Positions 12,047-49,142 of a DNA stretch of 49,142 nt are shown one piece after another. Below the pieces are notes generated by a model. That model was not told the DNA's origin, made no database searches, and worked only from the letters and a program-made list of their open reading frames with translations. This DNA is from Rotaria socialis. Taxonomy: Eukaryota. The translations under genes were made by a program, and so were the position numbers. The stretch is from positions 1 to 49,142 of the forward strand of contig CAJNYD010000461.1 in assembly GCA_905331295.1 (NCBI GenBank). Direction: 5' to 3'. How positions within the stretch are numbered: position 1 is the stretch's first letter; each line of letters starts with the position of its first letter.

Positions 12047-12216
12047 AAATAATGAGTACAGAAAGATCCTGTAGAGCTACTTGACATCGAAATCTTTAAT
12101 TCGAGCTTTATTTTGCTGAAACTTTCATGCAATTTAAACATATTCTAATTCATTTCTAGATTGGGTAACAGTTTTACTGTGTCGCTTTAATCTACCAACG
12201 AAATTTCATACAAAGA

Positions 12217-15200
12217 ATGTGGTCAGAACGAGATCAGACGTTCAAGTATGAGCAGCCTCAGTCGTATAAGTTTGATTTCAATATTGATCAAGTCAATGAA
12301 ATGAATAATGAAACTACGACTGATGCTGGAATGATACCACTAAATGATGATTTACAACAACAAAATTTAACTCCAGATCAATTGCAAGAGTTATTCTCTC
12401 GAGTTAGTTCTGAGCTAGTTGCAGAATCAACGGACGATCAAGAGTTTTTTAAACGCGAAGCTACAATCAAAGTACCAAAAACAAGTAAAACAATGCAAAC
12501 ACCATTTCCACCTCCTCCATTAGATCGTCAAGAAGATGTCGACATTCACATCGAACATTTGAAACAGTTAGCTAAAAAAGAAGCAAGTTCACTGGTCATT
12601 GAAAGACATTCTCCTAATGAAAACGAAGTTGATCATGTGCTATCAACTATTACATTAACATTTAATCAATCAATGATAAGTGTTTCTTCATTAGATGAAC
12701 AAATGAAAGCTGAAGATCTAGGTATATCATTAACACCAAACGTAGAAGGTAGATGGAAATGGATAGGAACGCAAACAGTTCAATTTGAAGCACAGCATCG
12801 TTTACCATATTCAACAAAGTACACACTAAAAGTCAACAAAGAACATTGCGTGTCAGTAATCGGAGGTAAATCTATCTGAAACTATAGAAGTTACATAGAA
12901 GACAGATGTTTGTTCACTAAATTAATTAATTATATTCCTCCTCTTTTTTTCAGAAAAACATTTTCATTCAAGCTTCGAAAAGCAAACGTATCGCTTTTAA
13001 ATATTTCGCAAAAGAGATCCTTGCTCTCAAAATAAATCATAATATACTACGATATGATCTGAAGTAACCGGTGGCGAACAAAGAATTATAGTGTTTGTAT
13101 TTTGAGTATTTCTCTTCTATTATCGATTTGATTAAGACATCTTTTGTATCAAATGATGCAGGCTGAAATTCTCTATAACATCGCATATTGTCAGGATTAA
13201 AAATGAAAATGTTCATGATTTAGTCAGAGTAGTTTCCTTACCGACAATTAACTTAGGAATTAAAATGATCAGAGACACCGTTTCTTTTGATCTGTACCAA
13301 TCACCCGACCGTCCACACGTAGCTCGAACAACAGTGGTTGTCAACAAGAATATCATGGTTGTTTCCCATACAGGAAAATAAAACAGCCAAAAATTGTTTG
13401 TTCTTTAAAAAAGAAAGGTAGAAAGTTACATTTGAAAATTGGATATTAAGTTAGTACACCAAAGAAAAATACTTTAGTTTAAATAGTACACGAATAATTT
13501 GTAGAACAGATTCTGGATGTTTCAGCAAGATGGAAGGGTAGCTGTTTTCTGTAAAAACAAGTAGAACAAGCAAAAACTTTCACTTTGTTGGGCTAAGGAC
13601 CTCTTACTGTTGTTCTTAGAGCTATTTCATTTTCACGCGTTCAGTGGTTTGAAGCGTTTAGAAATAGAACATATTGACTGTCCGATTAATTTCAATAAAA
13701 TATAAATTTGTCTTCTTCTTTCTCAAGGTTCAACTTTCTGTATTAATGCTACCATTATCTAATTTTTTTAAATATTCATCCAAACGCCATGCTAATATCG
13801 AGATATAGATTTTGATTTGCCTATATTCTACATTCATTTTGATATTTCGATTGCTTTTAGGAAAATTAGAGAACGAATTTTTCTTCGAATTTTCAACAAC
13901 CACGCCAACAGTTCTCGAGTTCTTACCAAATGAAGAAGTTTCAACATTAAAACCTACATGTTTTCTGTTATTTGATCAAAAAATTGATAAAAATGAAATT
14001 TTCAAGCATTTATGCGTAGTGCGTGGTGATGAACATAAAATGTCAACAAATGAACTAGAACTAGTAGATGAAACAACAGCAAAAAGTGAATTCAAATCGT
14101 TCATAAATGAAAAAGAAGGAAATCATGAGCAATATGTTGCATTTACATTTAAAGATGATTTATTAAAAGCAACACAATATACAATTCAAGTACCTACAGG
14201 CTGTCCATCAGCCGAGGGACCACTGATGACAACATCAGAGTGGTCAACTAGCTTTAATACTTATGAACCTTTAAAAATAATTGATTGGTTTCCAAACACA
14301 AACGATGAGTGGCGAAACACTGCTATTCCTGGTCGAACTTGGTCACTTACATTTAATAATTCTTTAGATCATTCAACAATTAAAAAATCTTTATTCAGAT
14401 TCGAGCCAGAAGTCAGTGGTCTAGGTGAGCATAGACGAAACTCGTTTCATAACATATTTTCTCATTAGTTTGTGTCAAAAATCAATCTTAAAGAAAAACT
14501 TCTTTTAGGTATTGAACATACAGAAGACAACGATCGAAAAATATTATTACATAATGAATCTCAGTCAAATACTATTTATACATTACTTATACAGTCAGAA
14601 ATATTGAAAGATATTTATGGTCAAACACTACAACATGATCATTCCGATCAGCCAATTCAGTTCGAAGTACAAGCTATAGATTCACCAACATTGGGAGTTT
14701 TACAGGGTGAATCAGGTATAGTACAAAAAAAGATAGATATTGCCAATAAAAGAGATGTTTATACTAGGCATGATCATAATGGATCCTGCTCTATTAAATG
14801 AACCGTGTTACACATTTATCGTTTGTAACTATTCAGAGCTAATACTTCGCATTAATCGAGTGAAACCAGAACATTACCAGGAGTATTTACTATACGTCAA
14901 TCGACGTTATCGCAGCGATGAAGAACAAGAGCCAGATAATAAATTACCTGGTGAAGAATTATAAAATGAAATTATACAAACAAACTGTCAATTGAATGAA
15001 CCAAAAGATATAAGAGTTCCTTTGAAGGCATATTTTACGAAACCATCTGGATTAGGCCAACTATTAATATTAATTGAACTAACCGAAAAGGCACGCGCTG
15101 AATTTCGAAATGAGCATTGGAATGATAGACCAACTATATCAATCTGGCTACAATGTACACGATTAGCAGTTGATGTATTTTCCTCTTCAGGTAATTGTAT

Positions 15201-18200
15201 TTTAAAAGAAAAATAGAAACGAACAGATACGCATATCCATTGTAATGATTAAAACCATTTACTGAATATCGTTTCGAGCTGAAGCAGCACTGTACATGCT
15301 AAACTGATGTTGTTTCAATTCTAATTCGATTGGGCTGTGCCTCATTTTTCATAAAATACGCCATCTCAAGCTCTAAGAAACTGGATATTTTGATCTGAAA
15401 TTAATTATACACTTGATGTTTCATATAATGAAAAGTAAAGATCTCCATAAGATAGTACCATATGATACGTCCATCTGGTTCTATTCAATTAAGAAGTCTA
15501 GTCAGGAATAATCAAAACATTTAAAAGGTAAAACTAATTGTTTGCATCGAAAACAATCGATGAAACTCGATATCTCTGAAAGAAATGTTTGGAGAATATT
15601 AAAAATGATATTGCTAAGATACTGAGAGGATTATTTATTCTACAACGTCCATTATTTCTCATAGATTAAGTAAAACAAGGATGAAAATAACGGCAGCTAT
15701 ATCATGTTTAACGCTTTAGTCTTGCATAAATTACAGTAACAACTGTTTATTCTAGATCCGGATTGTACATTAACCACATGGGTTACTGATCTAATGACCG
15801 GTGCACCCATCAATCAAGCAACTGTTTCAATATCGAATCAGAAAAAAGAAACAGATCAACACGGATTATGTACCATTAAACGATATAGGCCAGGGAATGT
15901 TCAAGAAACAGAAGAAGAAGAAGACACAAAAAATGAAATATTAGTCGTAGAAAAAGGCGACGATCTATGTATGCAAGTAAATACTCATTCTTATAGATCA
16001 ACTGGTGATGTTTACATTTGGCATGTATTCAATGATCGTGGTTTATATAGACCAAAGGAAGAAGTGCATATAAAAGGTTATGTTCGATTAATGAAAATTG
16101 AGGGTGAAGCAAAAATACCTACTTATGCTCAAGGTGTAATTGATTATATAATCTGTGGTTCTTACAGTGAACAACTTCAACAGTCAAAAGTAGAATTGAA
16201 TAATTATGGAGCATTTGATATCCATTTTACATTACCTGACAATGTTAACTTAGGTAAAGTTGATTGTCCTTGCAAAACTTGTTCAGAAAAGGTTCATAGA
16301 TTTCGTTTTAAGAGTCGTTGTAGGTGTAGGCTCGGGTGATTGTTGCTATTAATGTTTAGACATTCCATTGACTCACACACACACCTACACCCTGATAGAC
16401 CAAAGAAGAATTAATTGATTTCGAGTTCCCATTATTTTTAGGTAACGAATACGTTAGATTCAGTTTACTCGATTCAAAAAGTAATGAACAACATTGTTTT
16501 CAAATTCAAGAGTTTCGAAAACCGGAGTATGTAGTTTCATCAATGATTCGACCACCGTTAGCATATTATTGCTATCCAACTGTTGATCAATACGCTATAG
16601 CTAGTTGCGAAGGAAAACTATTTGTCGGCGGTTGTTTAAATGATGCATATGTCCGATGGACAGTACAAGCTACAACAACAACATTTACACCAGCTAACCA
16701 ATACGGCTATATGTTTGGCAGAGCTCAATCGTTCTGTTACTATTCTAGCTATGATAGAAAAACCAAAATATCATATCCAAAAAAGCACTTTCAGGGAAAA
16801 ACAAACAGTAAAGGTCAACATGAAATAAAAATTACTTATCATGGTATTGAACAAGAACCAAGGCCAATCATTGTTCATACATTAGCAACCATTACTGATC
16901 TGAATTATCAAACACAAGAAACAAAAGCAAATTTTCTCATACATCCATGTGCATATTATGTTGGATTTCAATTCGTAAAGAATTATGGAAAGAAAGATGA
17001 GCCTGTACAAACAAAAGTCATCGTAACAGATATTGATGGAAATTTAATTGATAATATTTTGGTTCGATGCGAAGTCATTGGATATGGTAGCGAAAAAAAA
17101 GAAGATCGAAATGGTTTAACAATATTTGAAGAAATAAAAGATGAACAAACATTAACAATAGTCAGTTCAAATAAAGGCGCAGTTAATATTGATTATACAC
17201 CAAAATTAGGTAAGGCTTTAAATTTGAAGAAGAAAAAATCAAGTTACAGGTCATCATAATAAGATTTTTTTGTAATAAAGCCTTTTGGTTCAGCTCGAAA
17301 GTGGTACTTTAATGAATGTATAGTTTTAGTTCGAGAACTTTAGAGAAATTTCTACTATCATTTTCATATGAGTATGAATGAAAAGTAAGTGATATAATTT
17401 GATGTTGTCAATATGTAAATATTCGATTATCATCATAGATTAGCCCATTTATAAATTCTTTGAGTGTGTAAGTTCATAATGGAGATCTTCATGAGATTGA
17501 ATATCAAGCCATGCTCTTTAAAACGTTATTGATGAATAACTGAGATATGATTTCGACGAATCCACACCAAATCACCTTTGGTCATCACGAACCTTGTAGA
17601 AGGTTAGAGTGAACTCATATATTTCGGAAATGATATTTAGATGCGTACTATAATATAGATAAAATATTGCAAGTATCCATACAGACAATAGATCATCTGC
17701 CATAGAGACATCATCAATGCGATGCTTCTTTTGTCATAACACTATTTCACTTCTATTTGATACTAGATGGTAGATACAATATAACATACAGTGCCAAAGA
17801 TGAACAAGGACGATTAGCTATGAGCTACTATGAAAATTTTTATGTTTCTGGTGGTTATAAAAGAGAAATACAACACGATAAAGAAATTAGTTTCATTCCA
17901 ACTGATTCAATCACAATTATACCGAATGCAAAAAAGTATCAACCGGATGATCTATGTGAATTACTAATCCTAGCACCGTTTAGTCCAGCTAATGGACTAC
18001 TTATACTCGATTGTGACGGTCAAGTCTCAGAACCAATACTATTTCAAATAGAACCTGGAAAAAATTCAACAACTATTGAATTTAAAATATCAAAAGATTG
18101 GATACCAAACGTCGAGGTTCACGCTGAATTAACGGGATCAATCCCAAGAGAAATAGAAGTGATTGATTCACCACATCGTCCAGCAACTGCTATTGGTTCA

Positions 18201-21197
18201 GTATCGCTAAAAGTATCAACAGATATTTACAAACTAAATGTTTTAATTAACACAAAAGAAACAAATAAAATGTATGCACCATCATCGATCATTCATATTG
18301 ATGTCAACGTCACGCAATACTTAGATAATGCATCTGTAGATAAAGCAGAAGTTTGCTTAATTGTTGTTGATGAAGCCATATTATCATTAACGGGTCACAA
18401 ATTAGAGAGTCCATTGAATCAATTCTATCATAATCGATCAGAAAATATCAGACATCATCAAAGTAGAGAGCATTGCTTACTTTCCAATGTTCAATATATT
18501 GAACAACTTAAGAAAAAGATACAAGAACGTCTCACCTTAAACGACAGTGACCGTTGTGGTGGGGGAGGTGGGGGAGGTGGTGGCGATGACAGATCGCGCC
18601 ATACCTTCATGGCAACTGCTGTTCGGTCGAACTTCAATCCCCTCGCATGTTGGACACCCTCATCAATCACTGATTCATCAGGACATGTTTCAATTGAAGT
18701 TAAATTGCCTGATAGTCTAACACGCTACCGTGTATGGGCGCTAGCAACGAATGATAAGCAATACGGTTTTGGTGAAATGTCATTTACTGTACAACTACCA
18801 ATTATGGTTCGACCTTCACTACCACGCTTTCTTAATTATGGAGATACAGCTCATTTCTCAGTTATTTTACAAAATCAAACTGATCAATCATTACTATTAC
18901 ATGCTGGCTTAAGAGCAACAAATGCTAAATTATTAGCATCACAAACAAATCAACAAGCAGTTGGTTATTCAATTGTTATACAACCTAGTAAACGAGCTGC
19001 TCTTAAATTTCCTGTAACAACAATTCATTCTGGTATAGCTCGATTTCAGTTTGTAGTGAGTACTGCCAAAAATGAAACATGTGCATCATTTGATGGTGCA
19101 ATTGAATTAAGTTTACCTATATTTACACCAGCAACATCTGAAGCATTTGCAACATATGGCGATATATATGATGAACAAGCAGTTTTACAACCAATAAAAA
19201 TACCAAAGAATGTTCTTGCACAATTTGGTGAAGTATCAGTAACAACAAGTTCAACAGCATTATCATCATTAACTGATGCAATTATTTCACTCTATACATA
19301 TCCATATGAATGTACAGAACAATTAAGTTCCAGATTATTAGGTATACAGTCACTGTGGGATGTTTTACAAGCATTTCACTGTAAAGAATTACCTGACATA
19401 TCGATATTGAAAACTAAATTAGAATCAGATATAAATATCTTAAAAGGTCGTCAATATCCAAATGGTGGATTTGGTTATTGGTCAAACCGAAACGATTCTC
19501 ATGCTGATCCATATATGAGTGTACATGTTGCACATTGTTTAGTTGTTCTTGTGAATAAAAAGGTAAGAGCTTTTTATTGTACAAACAACGATATATTGAG
19601 AAATAAGTAGCAGTTGTGTAGGTGGAATTCTATTGCAAGTTCGAAAAGATTCTGTTTAGTATATAAATCTAATCAAAACTGTACTACAAAAAAATTTTAA
19701 ATATCAACCATGTTTCATTATTTTAAAGGTATTTGATATTGACGAGAATATGCTGAACACTGCACTAAAATATCTTGAAAATATTGAATCTGAAATTAAT
19801 AAATTACCATACAGTGAACATTGGTCTGAAAGAACTCGATTTAGTTTGATGAGTTATGCATTATATGTACGAGCAAAACATCTTCAAAATGTTGCTGATG
19901 AAGCTTCACAATTATTTCAACGAAGTGGATTTGATAAACTTAGTTTAGAATCAATAGGGTGGCTATTAGTAGCACTCTCTAATGACACGATTTCTAATAA
20001 ATATGAATTAATTGACCGAATATACAAATATTTAAAAGATAAAGTAAATGAAACAGGGGAAACAGCGAATTTTATAACATCTTATGGTGATGATGGTCAA
20101 TCAGTGATGTTACATTCAAATCAACGAACAGATGCTATATTATTAGAATCATTATTACATATTGATCCAAAGTCTACTCTTTGTACTAAATTATGTAAAG
20201 GATTACAAGCACATAGAGTGAAAGGCGCGTGGAAATCAATACAGGAAAATTGTTTTGTTTTAATTGCATTGGATAAGTACTTTCATATCAGAGAAAAAGA
20301 TGAACCAGATTTTGTTGCTAATATTTGGTTTGACAATGCCTATTGTGATCAACATCAATATAAAGGTAAGATCATAGCCGTATAGCAGTAGTTTAGCAGA
20401 ACCTTCAAAAGTATGGGTTTTCGAACTGGTTTAAGTTTCCTAACGAACGATTTTTTTTTACAGTCTAACTTGATGATTTCGAAATATCTCATGTATTCTG
20501 ATTTCTTTTCTTATAATATAAAGGTCGAACAACAAATGCATATACAAGAAATATTTCAATGAAAGCAATCTTGTCGCCGTCATCATCACCATCCAATATA
20601 AATAATAATGATAAGAATTTAATCATACACAAAGATGGTAATGGTCGATTGTATTATCGTATTGCAATGAATTATGCGCCATCAAATCTGCAACTAAAAG
20701 CAGTTAACTATGGTTTTAAAATTGAACGAATATACGCAGCTATCGATGATCCATCACATGTTCAGAAACAGCCTGATGGCACTTGGAAATTCAAATTACA
20801 GGAAAAAATCCAAGTCACTTTAACAATGACAACAACACAACAACGACATCATATAGCATTAGTTGATTATTTACCAGCGGGTTGTGAACCATTAAATAGA
20901 AAATTAAACGGTACATTGACAGATAATACAAACTCATCAATAACTGGATCCAAAAGAAATAATTATTCTGATGGACGTCGACCATATTTAACTATCGGTT
21001 GGACTGATCATGAAAACTTAAGAGATGAACGTGCTGAAGCATTTCGATCAATATTATGGCCTGGTGTATATGAATGGAGTCATGTTATGCGTGCAACATG
21101 TGCTGGAACATTTATCACGCCACCAGCTAAAGCAGAAGAAATGTATTCACCCGAAAACTTTGGTCGCTGTGCCACAGAAATGGTTATCATTGACTAA
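12217..21197 (+). CDS. Bacterial-type alpha-2-macroglobulin (thioester protein), 9 exons, with one in-frame TAA (possible pseudogene or null allele)
   Basis: Phase-consistent GT-AG exons: 12217-12865, 13861-14424, 14509-14715, 14768-15190, 15756-16253, 16442-17209, 17767-19562, 19729-20365, 20524-21197. Motifs include [43 protein letters not shown]...[12 protein letters not shown], thioester YPYECTEQ (C at 19311), [15 protein letters not shown] and [15 protein letters not shown] at 14962-14964. Confidence 0.9.
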
Positions 21198-31373: not shown

Positions 31374-31784
31374 GAGAGCAATCTTCATTGTCTTCTTTTT
31401 TTATTTATTTTATTTGGTCACATAGATGTTCTCTACAAGCGTAATTGTCATAGGAACTTTTCTTCTTAGACTTTGTACTTTTTTTTCTTTGAAAATAATG
31501 GTCTATCAGTCGATAGCAACATGTTTACGGAGTACTAATGATTGATTATATTCTATTCACTTTTTGTTCAGTGAGATCATCAGAAGTGAACGAAAATTTA
31601 TTTCACAGTTCATCTTCTTTCGCTTTATGTAAACAGGTTTTCTCAGATATCCCTAAATCTTCGACAGTGTCCCCACGCGGGCAGCTTGTGCGTGACTTTT
31701 ATCTTAATTCCAATATCAAGAAGCAATATTTTTTGAACTTCAATTGCTTTTATCATTTTATTTTATTTTGTCTAACATATTCAC

Positions 31785-32345
31785 TTATTCCCTCTACTGA
31801 AAGGAGGGTATTACAAAAAACGAGTTAAATACGTTCGTTCGTCTGTTCGTCCAATAGGAAAGCAGATGCATAAACTTAACTAAACTCAAGAAAAATCTGT
31901 AGAGATAGGTTTCACCGAAGGTAACCAGGGTCGGGGAACACGACAGCGTCGTTAGTTTTTTAAAGTTTTGTAGTTCAAGCAAGTTTATAATCGATTAGGA
32001 GCAGTTTAGATCGTCGCGTTCTCGTAAGAGGAATTCTTTGTAGGGGAAATTTTTTGAGGGTACCATTCGATGGTGTTTATAGTGCTAGATGTATCGTATG
32101 GTTATATGAGGTCTTATTACGAATAGGCTATAGGCATCTTGCGATGGAATTGTTTCTCAATTTGGCAACGACTAGCCGCTCACCTGCACTAAGACGTTGA
32201 AAGCTTTTTTTCAAAGTCTTCAGTTTATTCTTTGTATGTCAATTTTTATTGTAGCACGAAGAATTTATTCAAACTTAATTCCTAGAATTCTAGACTAGGG
32301 CATCTACGAACGGCCGTGAACTGGAAAGGTACTCGGGAATCTTGT
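31785..32345 (+). mobile_element. Helentron-associated/DINE-1-like non-autonomous element (degenerate)
   Basis: 5' TATTCCCTCTACTGAAAGGAGGGTATT hairpin followed by a GTTC/GTCT microsatellite. The 3' end GACTAGGG...CTTGT resembles the 40358-40911 element. Right boundary uncertain. Confidence 0.45.
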
Positions 32346-32835
32346 CTCATTCTTCTCTAAATTATGAGGAATTCATCGCATATGTAGATGAAACTGGATT
32401 AAATTAGTCCCATAACTATTGTTTTCGGGCTTTTGAAAGTACTCTTGTTTTTCATCTAATAATTATAGAATGAGGCGAAGCTTTCTATCAATCATGCCGT
32501 GTTTAAAAGGATCACGTTCGCCGCATATATGAAACAAAACTAACCGCTCAGTTAAAAATCTGTTGTGATTCTAAGACTATAGACCTGGGAGACTTATAAA
32601 GTAGTTACAGGTTGTCTCGAGCAGAAAAGTTGAAACAATTTTCGAAAAGAAGAGATATCTTGAAGTTCTTCCGAAGACAGGTCGTGAAATAATTGGTCAA
32701 CTCGTGTGAAATACTTGAAATTTATATTTGTCGTGATTATCTTACTAAGTTTAGTTTTTCCTGATTGCAAGTAGATTCGATTCAAAAGATGTAAATGTTA
32801 GATTTATCTATCTGTGAACGTGCACCCCGGAATGG

Positions 32836-33457
32836 ATATATGCATTCTAGACGAGAAACGCATCGAAACAAAAAGAACCCAGATGGAGTTGAGCAAAAAT
32901 GAGGACAAATCTAACCGAAATCGAGTTAGAAAAAGTCAGTTTGATTTAATCTATGATCTACTCGTGCAGATTCATGTTAAATATCTAGTGCATAGGTCAA
33001 TTTGAGTTGTAACTTTACTAAAATGGGGTATTTCGACCATAACTATCTTGAATGAGTCTTTTTCTTCACTCCGTTATCAAGCTGATTGAAAGTTTTCGGA
33101 GCATAGCTTGAGCTGTAGCAGATCGGATGCATTTAACTTCGGTATTCCCATATAGTACTAGTAGGTACCACTTAAATGTCGTTTACTTGGTGATACTTCC
33201 AAGCAAGTTTTCTATTTCTGCTCGGTTAATCATTATCCTTTTGTAGTTACATTCCCCTCCTTCGGGGCGTGCTAATCAACCGGAGAGAAAGAGAGATACA
33301 CGTGTAATAGACAATATCAGTATGTATAGAGGAGAAGTCGTTGTATACCTTAATTAAGATCGCACTACTGATTTGTGAATTGATTCTTCTATTACATTAT
33401 TATTTTATATAATTTTGTAAATTCTTGAAGATAATATTTGTTTTGAATGTTCTTTCG
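32836..33457 (+). repeat. 622-bp direct repeat, copy 1
   Basis: Apparently identical to 36189-36810 (offset 3,353). Segment 33236-33362 recurs again at 36812-36938 with one mismatch. Confidence 0.95.
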
Positions 33458-33478
33458 AGAATAATTCAGAATAATTAA

Positions 33479-33523
33479 GCCATCTGATGATTCCTTTAGC
33501 CGGGATGAAATCTAGATAATGGC
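33479..33523 (+). ncRNA. Type I hammerhead ribozyme motif 1
   Basis: Stem I GCCAT/ATGGC; core CTGATGA; stem II TCC/GGA; GAAA; palindromic stem III ATCTAGAT; AUA cleavage triplet. Followed by CACACCCCATACCCACACCC. Confidence 0.8.
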
Positions 33524-33570
33524 AGCTCATTCACACCCCATACCCACACCCTCAAATTTATTAGATTAAT

Positions 33571-33619
33571 TGCCATCTGATGATTTGGGTTGTTCCAATG
33601 AAATCTATAGATTATGGTA
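33571..33619 (+). ncRNA. Type I hammerhead ribozyme motif 2
   Basis: Stem I TGCCAT/ATGGTA; CTGATGA; stem II TTGG/CCAA; GAAA; palindromic ATCTATAGAT; AUU triplet. Identical to motif 3, but its tail is truncated to CACAC. Confidence 0.8.
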
Positions 33620-33748
33620 GCTGGTCACACTACAGTTATTTGAATTTATCAACATTTATATATGAGTTATTTTAATTCTATATTTATGTCAGATATAAAA
33701 TAATCAAATAATCTTTTGATTTTTGTCAAAAAAAATGATTAAATTAAT

Positions 33749-33797
33749 TGCCATCTGATGATTTGGGTTGTTCCAATGAAATCTATAGATTATGGTA
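33749..33797 (+). ncRNA. Type I hammerhead ribozyme motif 3
   Basis: Same structure as motif 2, followed by CACACCCACACCCC. Confidence 0.8.
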
Positions 33798-33840
33798 GCT
33801 GGTCACACCCACACCCCTTAAATCGACTTAAAGATATTAA

Positions 33841-33884
33841 GCCACCTGGCGAGACCCCTAAGCAAGGTTGAAATCGATTGCGGT
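33841..33884 (+). ncRNA. Degenerate type I hammerhead motif 4 (core CTGGCGA)
   Basis: GCCAC/GCGGT stem I with a mismatch; stem II GACC/GGTT; GAAA; ATCGAT palindrome. Followed by CACCCACACCC. The core A6->G change probably inactivates it. Confidence 0.65.
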
Positions 33885-34056
33885 AGCTTCCTGCACCCAC
33901 ACCCTATACTTGTTTATGATTATAGTTAAGTGAATGCTATTTGGAAAATTTTAAATGTGCAAATGTACTCTATTTGATTATTGTATGGAAAAGTAATTCG
34001 AATGTATCCATAAGAATAATTTAATAATTACTATCTAGTAGGTACAATATTAAGAA

Positions 34057-34105
34057 TACCACCTGATGAAGTCTAGCCAAGACAGAAACAACTGTTGTCG
34101 TGGTA
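34057..34105 (+). ncRNA. Type I hammerhead ribozyme motif 5 (GUC site)
   Basis: Perfect stem I TACCAC/GTGGTA; CTGATGA; stem II GTCT/AGAC; GAAA; stem III ACAAC-T-GTTGT; GUC triplet at 34097-34099. CACACACACCCACCC lies downstream. Confidence 0.88.
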
Positions 34106-34533
34106 CGGCATTCTAATTTCTAAATGCACACACACCCACCCTAGACACAAGAATTTACAAATGCATGCTTATCTGTTATTTACTTCGCCAACATGAGAGC
34201 GAGATACAAGTTATTACCCTCACCGTATGGTAGCAGTAGCAAAAACCAAAGAGTGATAATGATAAAACAAATAAATGATAACAATATGAAAGTACTGAAG
34301 TTTACAGGGTATTCTTGGAAAACAACAAATTTGAGAATTTCTTAATCTGAAAATTGCAGATTATCTTGTCATTTTATCTCTATGAATTACAAAATGAACG
34401 CCAACCGCGTTGTGTAAGATCAACCTTGCGATTTGACTCCATACTTCTTGTCTACACGTAGGACAATTTCCTTTATAATAGTTTTGATATCTTTCTATAG
34501 CGGGTCAAGCGCGACCACTAATGAGAAAGCATC

Positions 34534-35514
34534 ATGAAGGCGAGAACCAAGCAAACACTCCTGTTGGTATTCCGTTTGGCTATATACCTTCTCGCATGGG
34601 AGACGTTGATTACCAACACTTTGACAATTTTTGTACAGTCTCTAAAAGTAACGCGTGGCAGCTACTATGAAGTGATCGATCGTCAAATTCACAATACCAG
34701 TAATGAATACACGGATTATCTATACGCCATCAAGGACAACTACACAGTGTTGGACTGCACGGAGCCGATTGGTCCTGTACGTGATAACAATTTCAACTAT
34801 CGATTTTTAAAACAGCCCATCTCTCTGATATTTTTTTGGATTGGTCAACTAATCATGATTGCCGTGTCATCTGCCGACATATTTTGTTTCATTCAACAAT
34901 ATCGCCGAGGGCCGGCTGAAGCCACTAATCAATCGACTACTGCGGAAGAGCGAGATTGCTGCATGAGATGCAAGTCATGCTGTGACAAATTCGGATCGAT
35001 TCTCATGAAGGTCGGTCGTATTGTATTCGTATCAACTACTTATGCGGTGCCTGCGTACTATATGGCTAATTTTGATTACAAGACGCCGTGTCTCACACCT
35101 TACCCGAAGTTGTTTCTTGGTGATACCGGTCTTATTTTCTATTACGGTAATTTGAGTGTCATGGTCGTGATCAGTACGATCCTCTTGTGGCGTCAGATAC
35201 GGACGGGAATTCCCGAGACTGTGTTCGATATCAAAAGACTCCGCATCTGTTGTGAGTCAACTGCCAAAGGCGCTTCGTTTTGTGCCCTGTTAACATGCAA
35301 CCGAAAAGCTATTATGCGTGCGGCATTATTGCAGATAGTGATGGGAATTGCGGCTGTGGGTCTATTTGGTTCTATGGTAATATTTTTCACCGAGCTGGCA
35401 AGTAAAACTGACGGCTTTGCTACAGCTGTTAACGGCGGTCTTCGTATGGGTTTCAGCGTCGTTGCTTTTCTTGGTAATCTTGATACCATTGCCTGCTGTG
35501 ACTGTTGTCGCTGA
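34534..35514 (+). CDS. Uncharacterised intronless multi-pass membrane protein (326 aa, ~6 hydrophobic segments, Cys clusters)
   Basis: Uninterrupted ORF, visibly more GC-rich than its flanks. N-glycosylation sequons lie in the first loop; Cys clusters CCMRCKSCC and C-terminal CCDCCR. A possible 5' UTR acceptor ends at 34500. Confidence 0.75.
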   Translation: MKARTKQTLLLVFRLAIYLLAWETLITNTLTIFVQSLKVTRGSYYEVIDRQIHNTSNEYTDYLYAIKDNYTVLDCTEPIGPVRDNNFNYRFLKQPISLIFFWIGQLIMIAVSSADIFCFIQQYRRGPAEATNQSTTAEERDCCMRCKSCCDKFGSILMKVGRIVFVSTTYAVPAYYMANFDYKTPCLTPYPKLFLGDTGLIFYYGNLSVMVVISTILLWRQIRTGIPETVFDIKRLRICCESTAKGASFCALLTCNRKAIMRAALLQIVMGIAAVGLFGSMVIFFTELASKTDGFATAVNGGLRMGFSVVAFLGNLDTIACCDCCR

Positions 35515-35617: not shown

Positions 35618-35652
35618 GGGTGTGTGGGTGTCTTCATTCTACACCCACACCC
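35618..35652. repeat. Inverted pair of telomere-type repeats (GGGTGT / ACACCC) forming a hairpin
   Basis: GGGTGTGTGGGTGT-cttcattct-ACACCCACACCC. Confidence 0.7.
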
Positions 35653-36188: not shown

Positions 36189-36810
36189 ATATATGCATTC
36201 TAGACGAGAAACGCATCGAAACAAAAAGAACCCAGATGGAGTTGAGCAAAAATGAGGACAAATCTAACCGAAATCGAGTTAGAAAAAGTCAGTTTGATTT
36301 AATCTATGATCTACTCGTGCAGATTCATGTTAAATATCTAGTGCATAGGTCAATTTGAGTTGTAACTTTACTAAAATGGGGTATTTCGACCATAACTATC
36401 TTGAATGAGTCTTTTTCTTCACTCCGTTATCAAGCTGATTGAAAGTTTTCGGAGCATAGCTTGAGCTGTAGCAGATCGGATGCATTTAACTTCGGTATTC
36501 CCATATAGTACTAGTAGGTACCACTTAAATGTCGTTTACTTGGTGATACTTCCAAGCAAGTTTTCTATTTCTGCTCGGTTAATCATTATCCTTTTGTAGT
36601 TACATTCCCCTCCTTCGGGGCGTGCTAATCAACCGGAGAGAAAGAGAGATACACGTGTAATAGACAATATCAGTATGTATAGAGGAGAAGTCGTTGTATA
36701 CCTTAATTAAGATCGCACTACTGATTTGTGAATTGATTCTTCTATTACATTATTATTTTATATAATTTTGTAAATTCTTGAAGATAATATTTGTTTTGAA
36801 TGTTCTTTCG
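36189..36810 (+). repeat. 622-bp direct repeat, copy 2 (ends at N 36811; partial copy 3 at 36812-36938)
   Basis: Sequence identity with 32836-33457. Confidence 0.95.
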
Positions 36811-36817
36811 NTCCTTT

Positions 36818-36952
36818 TGTAGTTACATTCCCCTCCTTCGGGGCGTGCTAATCAACCGGAGAGAAAGAGAGATACACGTGTAATAGACAATATCAGTATG
36901 TATAGAGGAGAAGTCGTTGTATACCTTAATTAGGATCGAGTTAGTGCTTACA
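36818..36952. mobile_element. Short LTR-like segment (135 bp), complete only in this copy
   Basis: TGTA...TACA termini. The other two copies break off after GATCG (33362, 36715). Followed by A-TGGCAC (weakly PBS-like). No TSD. Confidence 0.35.
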
Positions 36953-41634: not shown

Positions 41635-42205
41635 AAGAGTTTATCACTCTACTAATTAAGGTTTATCTTTCTTCCCTTTATTGATCATTATATCATTCTA
41701 CGGGTAAGGGTTGATTCTTCTCTCCATTGAGTTACAAGGTATATCATCCGACCGAGAAAACTAATCTTGGCGTCGTTCACTTTGTAAGGTTTATCACTGC
41801 ACGGTTAAAGATTGATTTACCTCCTTCAGCCTACACAGGGTTTATCATTATACGGATAGTGATTGATGACTTTCCATCCTCCTGAGAAGGGTTTATCACA
41901 ATGTGGATGAGGGTTGATCTACCTCCTTCAGTCTACAAAGGGTTTATCATTATACGGATAGTGATTGATGACTTTCCGTCCTCCTGAGAAGGGTTCATCA
42001 CCATGCGGATGAGAGTTGATCTACCTCCTTCAGTCTACAAAGGGTTTATCATTATACGGATAGTGATTGATAACTTTCCGTCCTCCTGAGAAGGGTTCAT
42101 CACAATGCGTATGAGGGTTGATCACCTTCCACCTTTCTACGAAGTGTTAATCAGTGCACGTATATAAGGTTTGATTCTTCCACCTTGTTGCAAAGATTTT
42201 ATCAA
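41635..42205 (+). repeat. Subterminal tandem array, 51-bp subunits forming a 102-bp higher-order repeat
   Basis: GGGTT(T/C)ATCA at 41838, 41889, 41940, 41991, 42042 and 42093. Alternate subunits are nearly identical. Confidence 0.85.
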
Positions 42206-42680: not shown

Positions 42681-45600
42681 ATGAATTGGTCTTCTGGACA
42701 AGTTATTACTTGGTGCAAATCATTCATTAATGATGAATCAATCTTATCGAGATTTGAAGGTCAGTCTATTCTAATTTATTACACAACAGCATGTTTATCT
42801 TTGTCAAATGAAAGCTCGTTTTGTGTTTGTGTGAAGAAATAGATCATCATTATGCATGCTAGAAGTTTTTATTATTAGCATTTATAGTTCGGTTAGTCAC
42901 CTTCGTCCGTTTTTTTAAACAAAGTAGACGCGTACGTTCGTGTGAACGAAAAGAATTGAATATTGTTTATATTTTTCCGATCCAATCATTTTTCAATCAC
43001 GTTTTTCTTATTCGTCGATTCGCTTTTAATTTGTAAACAAACAAGATTCCGTATTTTTTATTATTACAGAAAATCACTCATTTTATTTTGATCTTTCTCC
43101 TTTATCAAAGTCATAATGTCGCCATTCAGTTGTCCACTTTGTGTATCGAATCGGTGTTTCGGCAGTTTTGCCAAAATGTTCCAACATATAACATTGTATC
43201 ATCAGCACGAGCCAAATTTCAATATCACATGCGACTTACATAATGCATGTGGAGTTTTGTACAGAAATTATTCTGCTTATAAAGCTCATGTCTATCGACG
43301 ACACGCATCTGAAGTTCTGTTGAAAAACAAACCGAATAATACTTCAAATGTTACTCCTAATGAAAGTCAACAGCAAGAAAGTATGAATAATCTATTTATG
43401 GAATTAGGTACAATCAACGATTGTGATAATACATGTGATCCTGCTAATGATGATATTGAAGCAATTCTTATAGATGATGATTGCGAAACGAATATTTGTA
43501 ATCCTGAATTGTTTTTTGATTCCATTAACGCCGACGAAAGCTTTTCTGAATTTTTGTTGATTATGAAACGATCGTACTTGCAGTTTATTTTGGAATTACG
43601 TGAAGAATATTTACTGCCGCAAGGTGTTACAAATATCATTTCCACGTACATTGTAACGCTTTTTCGTCATTTAGAAATTTTATTGAATAAAAAAGCATTT
43701 ATTCCATCTACAAATATTTATTCATCTTCAACGTCGTTACCAGAACAAAACAAGAAAATAATTGAAATTTATCAACTGCACGAAATATTCAATGATTTAT
43801 CAAATATGATCGAATCGATTTCTAAAAATAATTATCAATTTATTAAAAGTTGTGAGAAATATTTCGATTTTAATTTACCTGAACAAGTTGTGTTATCATC
43901 ACCTAATGAACCTATCGAATCAGCTTATTTTATTCCGATTGATCGAACATTGTCATTGATGTTAAAATCTCAACGACTTCTTTTAGAAATCTCGGAAAAT
44001 ATTCAACAACAACGAATCAGCGCAGAAAATGATTCGGATCTAATGTATTCAATAAGAGATGCGCATTATGGTAATCGTTTCGATGAAGATAGCTTTTTAA
44101 TCCAGTTGTATTTGGATGACATTGGTCTTACTAATCCGATTGGTGCGAAACGCGACAAACATAAAATGACTATGATATATTTTTCTCTGGAGGATGTACC
44201 AGATAAATATCGATCGAAACTCGATTTCATTCAGTTAGTTGCTGTTTGTGAGAGCAAACATCTCAAAGTAAATATTTTAATGATAAACTCGAATATATAC
44301 TGACAGAGTTGGGATTTAGAATTTTTTTCTTGTTATTATTGATGCAATATAAGAATATGTTAGTTTTTTTATTTCTTTATGAACGCTAACTAAAATCTTA
44401 GCTAAACTTGAGATATTTTATTCAAGAAAGAACAGAACATCAATACGATTTTGTAATATCTAATATTTTTCTTATTTGAGAACGATGTTAAAGCTCGCCG
44501 CTTCTTCGCGCCGATTATTGAAAATTTAAACAAGTTGCAATTGCATGGTATTTCAATTCATGGCGTTCATCTTACGTTTTCTTTCTCTACCGTTGTTGCT
44601 AACAATCTAGCATCCCATTTTATAGGTGCATTTCAATCTTGCTTCAATGGTGGTCATTTTTGCCGAAGGTGTTATATTACATATTCAGAGAAGAATTTGC
44701 CAATTCCATTATCGAAAATTCAGACTCGATCAATGATTGATCACGATGATCTTGTTGATAAGATCATCAATGATCCTAATAGAATACCTTTGAAAGGTGT
44801 TATTGGACCTAGTCCTTTGCTAGAGTTGATTGGTTTTCATGCAACAACATCATTACCTCGAGATCTCATGCATGATTTCATTGAAGGAATCTGCCCAGTG
44901 ATTATAATTTCTTTACTCAAACAAGCGTCTTCATTGCGAATTTTAACATACAGTGAGAATATTTTTGTTATCTTTATAATCTTCATATTTAGAGTTTTTG
45001 TTTAATTAGATAGTCATACAATTTTCACATACTATGAGGGAAGCGTTCCTCTAAATTAGATTTATTTTTTCGCTGGTTTTCAATTTTTATTATTGTTGAA
45101 ATTATCGAATTGTTAGAAATCAAAGCAATCTTAATAAAAACATAATATTCGATTTTTCATAAGTTAGATGTAGGAGAATTAATTTCATTAAATGAAATAC
45201 AGCATTAATTAGGTTCTTTTTTTAATTCTATAAACAATAGCGACTTTTTTTTAAATCGTAGTAAAACTACTTGGTATTATTCTTTCGAATAATTCGTTTC
45301 TTATGCATTCATTGATTTGTATTTTTCACATGTTAAGTGCGCATACAAGAACGTATGGAAAACTTTCAATATGGAAAATTTGATTCCAGCAATCAACCGC
45401 CACCACTACTTGTAAAACACCTTCAAAACGATCATATGGTTGCCACAGCCGCTCAAAAATTATGTTTTTTCAAGCTTTTCCCTATAATTTTTAATGATAC
45501 AGTTGATCTTTTACCTTCATTTATAGTATACAAAGTACTACGAGAAATACTTGATCTTATATTGTCTTATCCATTTCGAAAAAAATGGTTGTATATACTT

Positions 45601-48600
45601 GGTGAATTATGTGATACTTTCCACGAAACAATGCTAAGTCATTTTCCGGAAAAAATAACGCCAAAGGCTCATTTCATTCGCGAGTATAAATACATGATAA
45701 ATGATTTTGGTCCAGCAGTTCGACAATGGTGTTTTCGATATGAAGCCAACCATTCCTACTTCAAGAAAATCACGGCCCGAACGAATAATTTTAAAAACAT
45801 TGCGAAGATGCTTGTTACACGTTATCATTTAAAGCAGTGTTTGACATTTGGTCATTTATCTCAATTACAATCAAATAAATATTCAGTTGGAATAAAAAAA
45901 GCTCGAAGTACTTGCTTCGATTCAGCAATGAAAGTTATCCTACTGAAACATTTCGATCATGCTGACTTTGACACAGATTTTTATCAATGCAAAACGTTAG
46001 TTTATGATAATGTTGAATATCGCCGATGTGGAGTGCATATTATAGATTTAAAACCATCTCATGAGCAACCAATATTTGGTCAAATTGCTATGATTATAAA
46101 AAAAGAATGAAAAATGGTGGTTATTAATTGATGTTCTTGATACCATTTGTTATGATGAAAAATTGTTTGCTTGGCAAATACAATCTACAGCTCGATACTC
46201 TTTGATTGATCCTAATAATTTAGTATATTATCACAAAGGACTGGATATTTACATGGTGAACAACTTGAGTTTTGTCTCATTTATATCACGTCTAACATTA
46301 CATTAACCATAACATGAACATTTAATGTTTTGAACGCTTATTCTCATATAGATTTTATTATGGCTTCATTTTAAAACTTTCATTAATCTTTTTTTATTTA
46401 TAATCTGCACGTGTCTGATAGTATAAGATTTTATTCAATGACTGCATGGTCCCTTTATGAATACGCATTGTGATTAATGAAGGCATTGGTTATGATTCAT
46501 GACCAATGAGACTTTATATGATTTAATATTGTATTTGCGTTTTGAAATATCATATCCTTATGTTATAGCTATAAGACTCTTGCACATTGCACGTTTTTTT
46601 TATATAACAACGCATACTAACCCAGCTTTCTAACTGTTTCAACTATCTTTTTTTTCAAAAAAAACACGTTTTTAGTCTTTTCCTTATATTTATATATAGG
46701 TTATTATTTGTTTTCTAGAACATGATGTAGATGGTCCAACGCTCAAGATGCTGAATAATGTTGAACGAATATCACTGTTAATACCGAAACTGAAACAACA
46801 GTTACTTTTCTTAGAAGAACGTGAGAAATTATTTCGAAAAGTTGATGACGGTTCAATTTCGTGTGATGGTTCGATTTCATATGATGGTTCAATTTCAAGT
46901 TATGGTTCAATTTCATGTGATGATTCAGTTTCATGTGATGGTTCATTAATTAATACATCTACAATACCTAAAGCACCAATTTTTACTGCAACAAATGCTC
47001 AAACAACACCTGCTGTTTCAGTTAATTCGAAATCACAATCTTCAATTTCTCTGTCAACTCCAAATCTTTCATCAAGAATGTCTATGAATAATTTAACAAC
47101 TGGTCAAGTTATTACTGTTGCAGATACTTCTTCATCTTTTCCAGATGTATATGAAGTACCAATATTACCAAAAGCTTTATTAAAAGATATTGAATCTGGA
47201 AATCTCAAAAGTTTTGGTCCACATTGTCAAAGTCGGCAAATACTAATCGATGCAGTAGTTCACGATCTGATTGAAAATTATAATTTACTGTATGTTATTT
47301 CTACAGTGAAATATATATAGTTGTCATGTTCTTGTATATTTGATCAATCGATCTTTTGTACCCTTTTTCGATAGTTTTTCTTTTAAAATGCAAAAAATTA
47401 ACTTTCTTTTTATTAATTACGTTGTTAAAATTTATATTTCAACAAATATGAGAAACGAAACCGTTAACTCAAACAGTTTTTGTTGAAATATCTCAAATGA
47501 TAAGATGAGATTTCTCTCGGTCATAAAATTGTTAATTATCGACAGTTTTAACGCTTGCTCAATTTTTTATTCACGTTTCAAACATTGACTATAGTCCAAG
47601 ATTGAACAATTAATATAAAACTTCTGTTTTTTCTTTGAAAAAGCTTTTTAAATTAATGTGGAATTTCGCATTCATTTTTATTGTTCATTTTTTTAGCTAT
47701 CTATCAAAAACACAATATAATATCGTTGGTTCTGCTCTTGTACGATGTTTGAAATTACCTTCAACACCAGAAAATCTAGTAAGTTCATTTATCAATTAGA
47801 AAAACATATCATGTTGTAATTTTCAGACGATTTGGAAAGATGCTTTACAAACTAAATTAAAACGTACACGTGCTGATTATCCAAATAGCAGTCTTGTTCA
47901 AGTATTTCGATTAAAATATTCCAAGGTGGGATCTGGACGTCCAGTCAAACAAAAAATTGGCGAAATTGTTGAACGTGATAGACATAAACAGGTAACTAAT
48001 AATTAAATATTACTTATAATTTCATTGTTTCTTCTAGATGGTAATAATGCCATATAGCAACGAGCTGTCTGATGAAATTCAAACTAAAGTGGTACAATTA
48101 CAAAATTTTTCTGAACTTGAAGTAAGTACGCAATTACGGTTATGGAAAGAAACATTTATCTTTCGTCGACAAGTCGTACGAGATCAATCAACAAGTGATA
48201 TAATAAAGAATTTTCCTGCTTATAGTAATCCTTTTTTGGTAAATTGGTTTCTCAAGATTATCTTCTTTGCATTAAACATTTGTTTTCTATTATAGATTTT
48301 CGAAGAAGTAAAGATGTTGATGAACATTGACTTAAGTAAAGAAGTTCGACAACAAGTTCCTATTTTACTAGATAAATTAGTCGAAACTCCTGCATTCATT
48401 GCCGGTAAATAAAATAAATGATAAACGTTCATGAATAAACAATTATTGATTTTAGATTCATCTCCTATTCGATTAATTAAAATCTTATGTCGAAAATTCG
48501 GCGAGACTGTTCAACATGTATTCTGCGAAAACGTAAGTTTGTCTTTAATATGTTCAAATTTTTACTTAAAAACAGATAAAAATTTATTTGAATTTATCTC

Positions 48601-49142
48601 AGTGAATAAACGATTGACTTAAGTAATTAAAGAGAAATAAAGGATATTTAAAGTTCCAGTTTTTAAGAAAGACCTTTATCTTATTCGATGTTCTATCGTC
48701 TTTAATATCGCAAAGATTTATTTAAAGTTGTAATTTTTCTCAAGTGTTGACTAAAGTTATTAGATGTCTTTAAAACATATTGACACCAGACAGTGATGTA
48801 TCATGGCATGCCTTTTGTTTTTGTTAGTGCAAATCAAAAAAAATTATCTTTATAGGAACCACCAACGCCTTATCCAACATTGGTCTCGATTGATGGTATC
48901 ATTCATATTTACGTTGACTTTCATCCGATCGTTTCAACTAGTTCACCAGATGATGCTCTTGGTCTTCTTATCGCAATGTATTCTATTTTTGAATTATCAT
49001 TTGATAAAAAGAGCAGAACCAGCCGATTTTTATATTGTGTTTTATATGGTTGTAAACAATTTATATCAAATTCAATTCGAGTATTGATAAAGGAAAAGAA
49101 TATTGATATTCATTGTGAACGTCTTCAACTGCCATCTATCTC
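42681..49142 (+). CDS. EnSpm ORF2 (TnpA-position accessory protein) with N-terminal SAM-like domain, partial
   Basis: Exons 42681-42759, 46719-47289, 47697-47778, 47827-47991, 48038-48238, 48296-48404, 48456-48532 and 48856 to window end are phase-consistent. The first junction reads MNWSSGQVITWCKSFINDESILSRFE-EHDVDGPTLKML; the C-terminal part has ALGLLIAMYSIFELSF. Confidence 0.7.
43116..46306 (+). pseudogene. CMC/EnSpm-type DDE transposase with N-terminal C2H2 fingers, apparently inactivated
   Basis: Exons 43116-44267, 44481-44952 and 45338-46306. Motifs: CPLC..H..H, LYLDDIGLTNPIG, A(N)NLASH, FCRRC, DLMHDFIEG, TPKAHF, WCFRYEANH. A +1 frameshift in the A-run 46098-46104 gives TGA at 46110; the shifted frame ends at 46306. 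Confidence 0.85.
46847..46945 (+). repeat. 18-bp coding tandem repeat (DGSISC-like x5-6) in ORF2
   Basis: GATGGTTCAATTTCATGT-type units. Confidence 0.85.

Follow-up and report, generated by a model that had tools for sequence, protein, structure and literature searches.

Hammerhead motifs and reverse telomeric tracts at an internal locus of Rotaria socialis: probable stacked ends of Athena/Terminon-type retroelements

Telomere-attached retroelements and minimal hammerheads

In the passages of PMC6431247 that deal with them, Athena/Terminon retroelements end in a hammerhead ribozyme (HHR) followed by (ACACCC)n, and their copies are 5'-truncated by telomeric repeats. These copies form head-to-tail arrays, with host genes in between, and can become internal (same passages of PMC6431247); the bdelloid telomeric repeat is given as TGTGGG in part of PMC7943196. 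Hammerhead plus telomere-repeat ends and truncated head-to-tail piles are thus already published for bdelloids. The stretch of DNA analysed here, "the window", is 49,142 nt of Rotaria socialis (contig CAJNYD010000461.1, forward strand), and it contains a cluster of five hammerhead motifs at 33479-34142. With the Athena/Terminon elements, which are endonuclease-deficient Penelope-like elements (PLEs), as portrayed in sections of PMC6431247, PMC8557442, and PMC7943196, the cluster shares a hammerhead followed on the same strand by (ACACCC)n, a bdelloid host, 5'-truncated copies that are bounded by telomeric repeats and lie head to tail, and a host-type gene between repeat copies. However, the ends in the window are very short (about 90-260 bp for those called B, C, and D below) and lack reverse transcriptase (RT) or accessory ORFs, four sequence classes occur within 660 bp, and the cluster is internal in its contig. 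The host also differs, being Rotaria rather than the Adineta vaga of the figure in PMC6431247. Athena, Rotaria, and hammerhead together gave no match in the literature searched, which lacked the primary Terminon paper, and we do not claim that four-family stacks are unreported.

The minimal type I hammerheads of PLEs form the second point of comparison. As set out in parts of Cervera and de la Pena 2014 (PMC4209133), whose Table S1 includes rotifer Athena hammerheads, these have a 5-bp helix I, a small palindromic helix III, type I topology, predicted dimer-dependent cleavage, and many variable families per genome, and all of these features are shared by the motifs of the window. In contrast to the conserved G10.1-C11.1 pair described there, window motifs 1-3 have U.U, and 6 of the 15 rows in the alignment discussed below are unpaired at this position; in addition, GAAA is preceded by an extra A in window motif 5, and the core of motif 4 is altered. 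A dimer model and low activity have been reported for the minimal PLE hammerheads (portions of PMC4209133, summarised in a passage of PMC6765202), and their in vivo role is termed a mystery in a passage of PMC7761336.

Non-LTR retrozymes, in the account given in parts of Cervera and de la Pena 2020 (PMC7229834), resemble the cluster in being non-coding tandem repeats of ~170-230 bp with type I hammerheads. Their hammerheads are canonical, with loop-loop contacts, and they form homogeneous arrays and circular RNAs; in contrast, the units of the window are heterogeneous, minimal, and telomere-tailed. A homogeneous tandem array with canonical hammerheads is absent from the window, which has one two-unit repeat and four classes.

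Taken with the evidence below, the cluster is probably a set of four 5'-truncated 3' ends of Athena/Terminon-type retroelements, which belong to different families and are stacked head to tail. Each end most likely consists of a hammerhead motif and then a short ACACCC tract, and the likely extents are A (up to 33553), B (33554-33817), C (about 33818-33906), and D (about 33907-34141).

Anatomy of the cluster

Exactly five type I hammerhead folds are found by our own descriptor on both strands of the 49,142 nt, all of them on the + strand between 33479 and 34104. The descriptor reads, in order, stem I, CUG[AG]NGA, stem II, GAAA, stem III, UH, and stem I; it was composed after the motifs were known, and it permits A or G at position 6, which is needed for motif 4. 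In dinucleotide shuffles (n=200) the mean is 0.06 matches per window, with at most 1 within any 700 bp. An earlier note on this DNA had described five same-strand type I folds within ~630 bp, and the descriptor and the shuffle test bear this out. Position H17 falls at 33518, 33613, 33791, 33879, and 34099, in agreement with the cut sites that the note had predicted after 33518, 33613, 33791, and 34099. The four sequence classes of that note also hold: stems II and III fall into four, one of which is shared by motifs 2 and 3, which are identical. Its uniform CUGANGA core is correct for motifs 1, 2, 3, and 5, in which CUGANGA, GAAA, and UH are present and closed by helix I, but not for motif 4, which has CUGGCGA. 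The small palindromic helix III is perfect as AUCUAGAU, AUCUAUAGAU, and AUCGAU, while the palindrome of motif 5 contains a central U.

A scan with Rfam gives no match at the gathering threshold, and the 7 matches at E<=10 are chance matches, none of them a hammerhead. These minimal variants evidently lie outside the Rfam models, and the silence of Rfam is not counter-evidence. A model built from the 15-motif alignment and searched with filters off gives 8 matches at E<=2: the five motifs, plus three weak ones that are not hammerheads; by this search there is no sixth hammerhead in the 49,142-nt window. Two motifs outside its training set are regained by the model: motif 2 and, with a weak score (17.7 bits, E about 0.01), motif 5.

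Unit A (31850-33553, + strand, delimited by contig depth) is a high-copy repeat without long ORFs that ends in hammerhead 1 and its tail. Its left end is approximate (about 31,790-31,890; unique contigs stop at 31810-31890), and it may comprise one element or several. In the region 31500-33502, six frames read through stops contain no Pfam domain, no match to RT or ORF1, and no coding remnant. The copy at about 31850-33470 (~1.6 kb) differs at many positions from most other genomic copies. The DNA past the tail of metagenome locus L003 seemed to resemble the first part of unit A (about 31.9 kb), but this similarity was rejected: the best alignment score was 35 against a shuffle maximum of 34, and no locus stood clearly above shuffles. 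Hammerhead 1 (33479-33523, + strand, found by the descriptor) is of type I, with the palindromic stem III AUCUAGAU, U10.1.U11.1, and a predicted cut after 33518; over 58 nt it is 93% identical to the tailed hammerhead of locus L009. Its reverse telomeric tract, with two ACACCC, lies at 33532-33551 (+ strand).

Unit B (33554-33817, + strand) is a two-copy tandem end with a period of 178 bp, recognized by a 77-nt repeat that is 96% identical, and it contains hammerheads 2 and 3. Hammerhead 2 (33572-33618, + strand, found by the descriptor and by the alignment model) has the stem III AUCUAUAGAU and a predicted cut after 33613, and the identical hammerhead 3 (33750-33796, + strand, found by the descriptor) has a predicted cut after 33791. 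The full telomeric tail is present on the last copy only, as the reverse telomeric tract at 33804-33817 (+ strand); directly after hammerhead 2 there is CACAC-TACAG. This layout recurs in L009 (72% over 219 nt) and L002 (71% over 182 nt). Moreover, internal units of L009, L012, and L014 (+ strand pair) end in CACAC or CTCACC, with the full tract on the last unit only. Since the internal units of relatives show the same form, the CACAC of motif 2 is the normal form of an internal unit and not a damaged tail, and since motifs 2 and 3 make up one tandem two-unit end, there are likely four element ends rather than five.

Hammerhead 4 (33841-33884, + strand, found by the descriptor) belongs to unit C (about 33818-33906) and is followed by a reverse telomeric tract at 33894-33904 (+ strand). 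Besides the core CUGGCGA, it has an A.C mismatch in stem I and G.U at 10.1-11.1. In run X3 there is a C instead of T at 33869, which gives G10.1-C11.1, so the motif differs between runs. Relatives with a stem II like that of motif 4 (L011, L014) retain CUGAUGA. The base A6 matters for hammerhead activity. Motif 4 has probably decayed and is predicted to be inactive, because its core is changed, its stem I is mismatched, its active fold lies 11.4 kcal/mol above the minimum free energy (MFE), and relatives keep CUGAUGA.

Hammerhead 5 (34058-34104, + strand, found by the descriptor and by the alignment model) belongs to unit D (about 33907-34141) and has a predicted cut after 34099. It has a longer stem III, ACAAC-U-GUUGU, a GUC cut triplet, and G-C at 10.1-11.1 with the extra A before GAAA, which is retained in a relative in L004 (82%). 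Its reverse telomeric tract (34127-34141, + strand) is joined to single-copy DNA. The U.U of motifs 1-3 at 10.1-11.1 recurs in L002, L008, L009, L012, and L014 and is thus considered a bdelloid variant.

Units B, C, and D each start directly after the preceding telomeric tract. The window has 11 ACACCC hexamers on the + strand, and six of them fall within 33479-34142 (664 bp), where 0.05 are expected. Of the tails that the earlier note had placed ~7-25 nt after four motifs, those of motifs 1, 3, and 4 start 7-9 nt downstream of stem I and that of motif 5 about 23 nt downstream; however, the CACAC of motif 2 is not the truncated tail proposed there. The note's stack of five motifs is likewise retained, but as a stack of what are likely four ends.

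Depth was taken from the contigs of 4 DNA runs (8 runs from two studies contain the stretch), and summed contig depth does not equal copy number. In 4/4 runs this depth is ~10- to several-hundred-fold over the single-copy background at about 31.8-34.3 kb, with unit A at high depth from bin 31717-31933 to 33669; from 34.3 to about 36.1 kb it is single-copy. Within the cluster, contigs of single-copy depth (>=96% identity) span 33787-33966 with 0 differences (X2) and 33779-33966 with 1 difference (X3), and further single-copy contigs cover 33945-34055 (X2) and run from 34096 onward into unique DNA (X3, X7). Since single-copy contigs span them while the motif bins are far deeper (tens to >1000 times deeper than the bridging contigs), the junctions between motifs 3 and 4, between motifs 4 and 5, and between motif 5 and unique DNA are real and local. 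Motif 1 with its tail (33488-33548) is covered by contigs with 0-1 differences. Among the contig pieces listed for 3 DNA runs, there is no bridge over the junction between motifs 1 and 2 (about 33554) or over 33710-33739; as a result, the order of units may be partly assembly-made, although uncovered bins prove nothing, and the same holds for the lack of cover at 33860-33919 in X7. In run X1, a joint leads from 33647 to 33479, that is, in other copies a motif-2-type spacer is joined to a motif-1-type hammerhead, and motifs 1-3 therefore belong to one broad family. One contig of run X9, whose RNA origin is only guessed, contains a motif-5-family copy and says nothing about expression. To the right of the cluster, 36189-36938 consists of a 622-bp exact copy of 32836-33457, a single N at 36811, and then a third copy of 127 bp. 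Contigs join across the N in 4/4 runs, which suggests that 223 bp around it are an assembly overlap artefact.

The monomer MFE folds of the motifs are not the hammerhead fold, and their z-scores against shuffles range from -0.9 to +0.5. Computed stem III duplexes between like motifs reach -7.4, -9.8, -4.3, and -9.3 kcal/mol, and none between unlike motifs is stronger than -2.6 kcal/mol. The predicted double hammerhead of motifs 2 and 3 lies 3.8 kcal/mol above the MFE, compared with 14.6 for two monomers, and the five unlike pairs tested lie 9.5-28.4 kcal/mol above it; for the motif 5 monomer the active fold is a mere 1.4 kcal/mol above the MFE. On these energies, cutting is predicted to require a dimer of two like hammerheads joined through the palindromic stem III, which in this cluster only motifs 2 and 3 could form in cis; this agrees with the published dimer model and low activity. 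The cluster offers a compact test bed: within 660 bp it combines two like motifs (2 and 3), neighbours that are unlike, a probable inactive control (motif 4), and, in motif 5, a candidate for near-monomer behaviour.

Relatives in metagenomes and the link to reverse transcriptase

A search of metagenomes used a pattern in which the 5' strand of stem I, the cores, and the downstream CACACCC were fixed and no base-pairing rule was imposed. It yields 15 metagenome loci with 13 distinct matches (two are duplicates), and no matches in viral contigs or in prokaryote genomes. A stem II of >=4 bp is present in 10 of the 13 distinct matches (shuffles, n=2000: mean 0.94, max 5), and stem I with a near-palindromic stem III in 12 of 13 (shuffles, n=2000: mean 0.81, max 5). 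Locus L006 was rejected as a relative and is a chance match.

The alignment (n=15) comprises window motifs 1, 3, and 4 and 12 motifs from the loci; the duplicates, L001, L006, motif 5, and most internal units were left out. Its cells are paired in 92.8% of cases, and 9/13 pairs change on both sides, including 5/5 stem II pairs, a level that is reached by 0/500 shuffles and approached by no slid register; the shuffle count is not a probability, because the rows are different families, chosen by us, and the structure was drawn from them. The compensatory stems described in the earlier note thus recur among metagenome relatives, and these changes in sequence provide strong support for the hammerhead structure.

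The relatives also resemble the cluster in their arrangement. At least two units are present in 7 of the 12 distinct hammerhead loci, and a telomeric tract separates unlike units in four (L003, L004, L008, and L011), as in the window; the terminal tail in these loci is given by construction of the pattern. In L014, hammerhead pairs at 219-889 and 2210-2284 face each other on opposite strands, with a fifth motif 1.3 kb off.

One locus, L010, connects such an end to a reverse transcriptase. It contains a bdelloid RT ORF whose end is followed, about 320 nt farther downstream on the same strand, by a hammerhead and ACACCC. This ORF has 446 homologues, many of which are annotated reverse-transcriptase-domain proteins of Rotaria, Adineta, and Didymodactylos; because the RT piece has no Pfam and no PDB match, its identity rests on these homologue annotations, and its assignment to Athena would rest on host, end structure, and literature. 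L010 represents a related family, not one of the window's four exact families, and it is the only one of the 15 loci with RT upstream of the motif, the contigs being short (1.0-4.3 kb). Downstream of the tail, L012 has an RT fragment and L009 has DNA that matches the N-terminal region of an RT-family protein, which is where another truncated element would be expected to follow. Within the window, the best 120 of the 446 bdelloid RT-family homologues give no tblastn matches at E<0.01, in accord with the earlier report that the window lacks reverse transcriptase. A complete Athena/Terminon element, with an endonuclease-less RT ORF 5' of the hammerheads, is also absent from the window, whose copies are remnants. 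None of the four ends in the window is connected to an RT or element ORF, so that their family assignment depends on end structure and relatives. The link to Athena/Terminon 3' ends and the "stacked termini of several element families" proposed in the earlier note are supported.

Formation of the stack and its surroundings

For the stack of truncated ends, the published model suggests how attachment might proceed. The C-rich tail of an element RNA would pair with an exposed (GGGTGT)n overhang, either at a chromosome end or at a healed break, and RT supplied in trans would copy a short stretch and then stop. The new end would be capped with telomere repeats, which could receive the next element. 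Attachment would thus have begun with D (motif 5), followed by C (motif 4) and B (motifs 2 and 3), with A (motif 1) last. The cluster is not at a contig end but internal within the window, and because 31 kb of ordinary genes lie to its left, the site would have become internal afterwards. The cut site of each motif falls between element body and tail, and none of B, C, and D starts at a cut site. Every unit keeps an intact hammerhead together with the spacer 3' of the cut; thus, the anatomy of the cluster suggests that the copied RNAs were uncut, or were re-ligated, at the terminal hammerhead, in which case cleavage probably did not make the priming end.

High copy number raises the question of whether the stack is partly an assembly chimera of hammerhead repeats, since the junction between motifs 1 and 2 and 33710-33739 lie outside the listed contig pieces, and the 622-bp, 100% identical duplicate (32836-33457 = 36189-36810) stops at an N. 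However, motif 1 with its tail, the junctions among motifs 3, 4, and 5, and the link to unique DNA are all held by contigs with 0-1 differences, and the same stacking is found in independent metagenome contigs. This explanation is therefore highly improbable; a full chimera is unlikely, while a partial one may exist at the left junction. If the order is real, the motifs could still belong together, either in the 3' region of a single Terminon-like element, which would then be composite, or as a dedicated multi-ribozyme module for processing and telomere attachment that is maintained as a whole. Relatives can have several hammerheads per end (four in L008 and four in L012), and the X1 joint places motifs 1-3 in one broad family. 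Yet the junctions on both sides of motif 4 are single-copy at >=96% identity, internal units of L009, L012, and the + strand pair of L014 lack the full tail that four units carry here, and motif 4 is without A6. A cooperative module is further disfavoured because unlike neighbours are predicted to fold poorly as dimers, both in their stem III duplexes and as double hammerheads. We consider a composite region or module improbable, and the "dedicated RNA-processing and telomere-attachment module" offered in the earlier note is set aside on the grounds of the single-copy junctions, the poor unlike dimers, and the lost core base of motif 4.

A different origin would make B and D, and perhaps A, small non-autonomous retrozyme-like elements, amplified through circular RNA and attached by Athena RT in trans. 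Contigs of X1 and X5 (2/4 runs) lead from 34131 back to 33905, a step of 227 nt that lands close to where unit D starts, although the letters between the sides of this joint are not known. The motif families are high-copy, and unit A is ~1.7 kb, high-copy, and without detectable coding remnant. In addition, several units in the window, L003, and L011 begin merely 10-70 nt upstream of stem I, but short truncation alone accounts for short units. The hammerheads, too, are of the minimal palindromic PLE type rather than the canonical retrozyme type presented in parts of PMC7229834. Such an origin is thus rather unlikely. There is a similarly small chance that Rotaria harbours non-coding hammerhead retroelements of miniature size that seek telomeres, multiply by way of circular RNA, and use RT borrowed from Athena, with the stem III palindrome as a family-specific lock. 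If so, the units of ~180-230 bp and the 1.7-kb ORF-less form would live as retrozyme-like parasites on a telomeric retroelement, and the lock would allow only like units to cleave each other. Four stacked, truncated Athena/Terminon-type ends remain the best explanation of the cluster.

To the right of the stack, an intronless single-copy ORF of 326 aa lies at 34534-35514 (+ strand). Its product has several hydrophobic stretches and Cys-rich patches and belongs to no Pfam family; its 90% cluster includes a member named Rotaria socialis, and it has nine representatives at 50% clustering, of which the named ones are bdelloid (Adineta vaga, Rotaria magnacalcarata), and an atlas search gives scores of 0.80 or less only. 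With the hammerhead stack on one side and another copy of the unit A repeat on the other, the ORF resembles a host gene that is trapped among elements. About 100 bp past its stop, at 35618-35652 (+ strand), a G-rich telomeric tract is followed by a 9-nt spacer and a C-rich tract. Folded as a hairpin, this sequence has an energy of -20.9 kcal/mol (z -4.5, 0/200 shuffles), and it looks like either the scar of an end-to-end telomere fusion or a hammerhead-less element end; the G-rich/C-rich hairpin pattern has no match in the 15 metagenome loci.

Farther away, a multi-exon gene for a bacterial-type alpha-2-macroglobulin occupies 12169-21197 (+ strand), with Big_5, MG4, A2M_BRD, A2M, and bMG10 domains; the gene, with its introns, was likely acquired horizontally. 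At 43092-49140 (+ strand) there are several long ORFs with a zinc-finger-like start and no Pfam match in the four tested, whose motifs we take to recall an EnSpm/CACTA-type transposase. AT-rich nested direct and inverted repeats at 2306-2933, with 155-nt arms that are 97% complementary, are possibly a foldback or MITE-like element, and a tandem array with a 51/102-bp period is present at 41788-42204.
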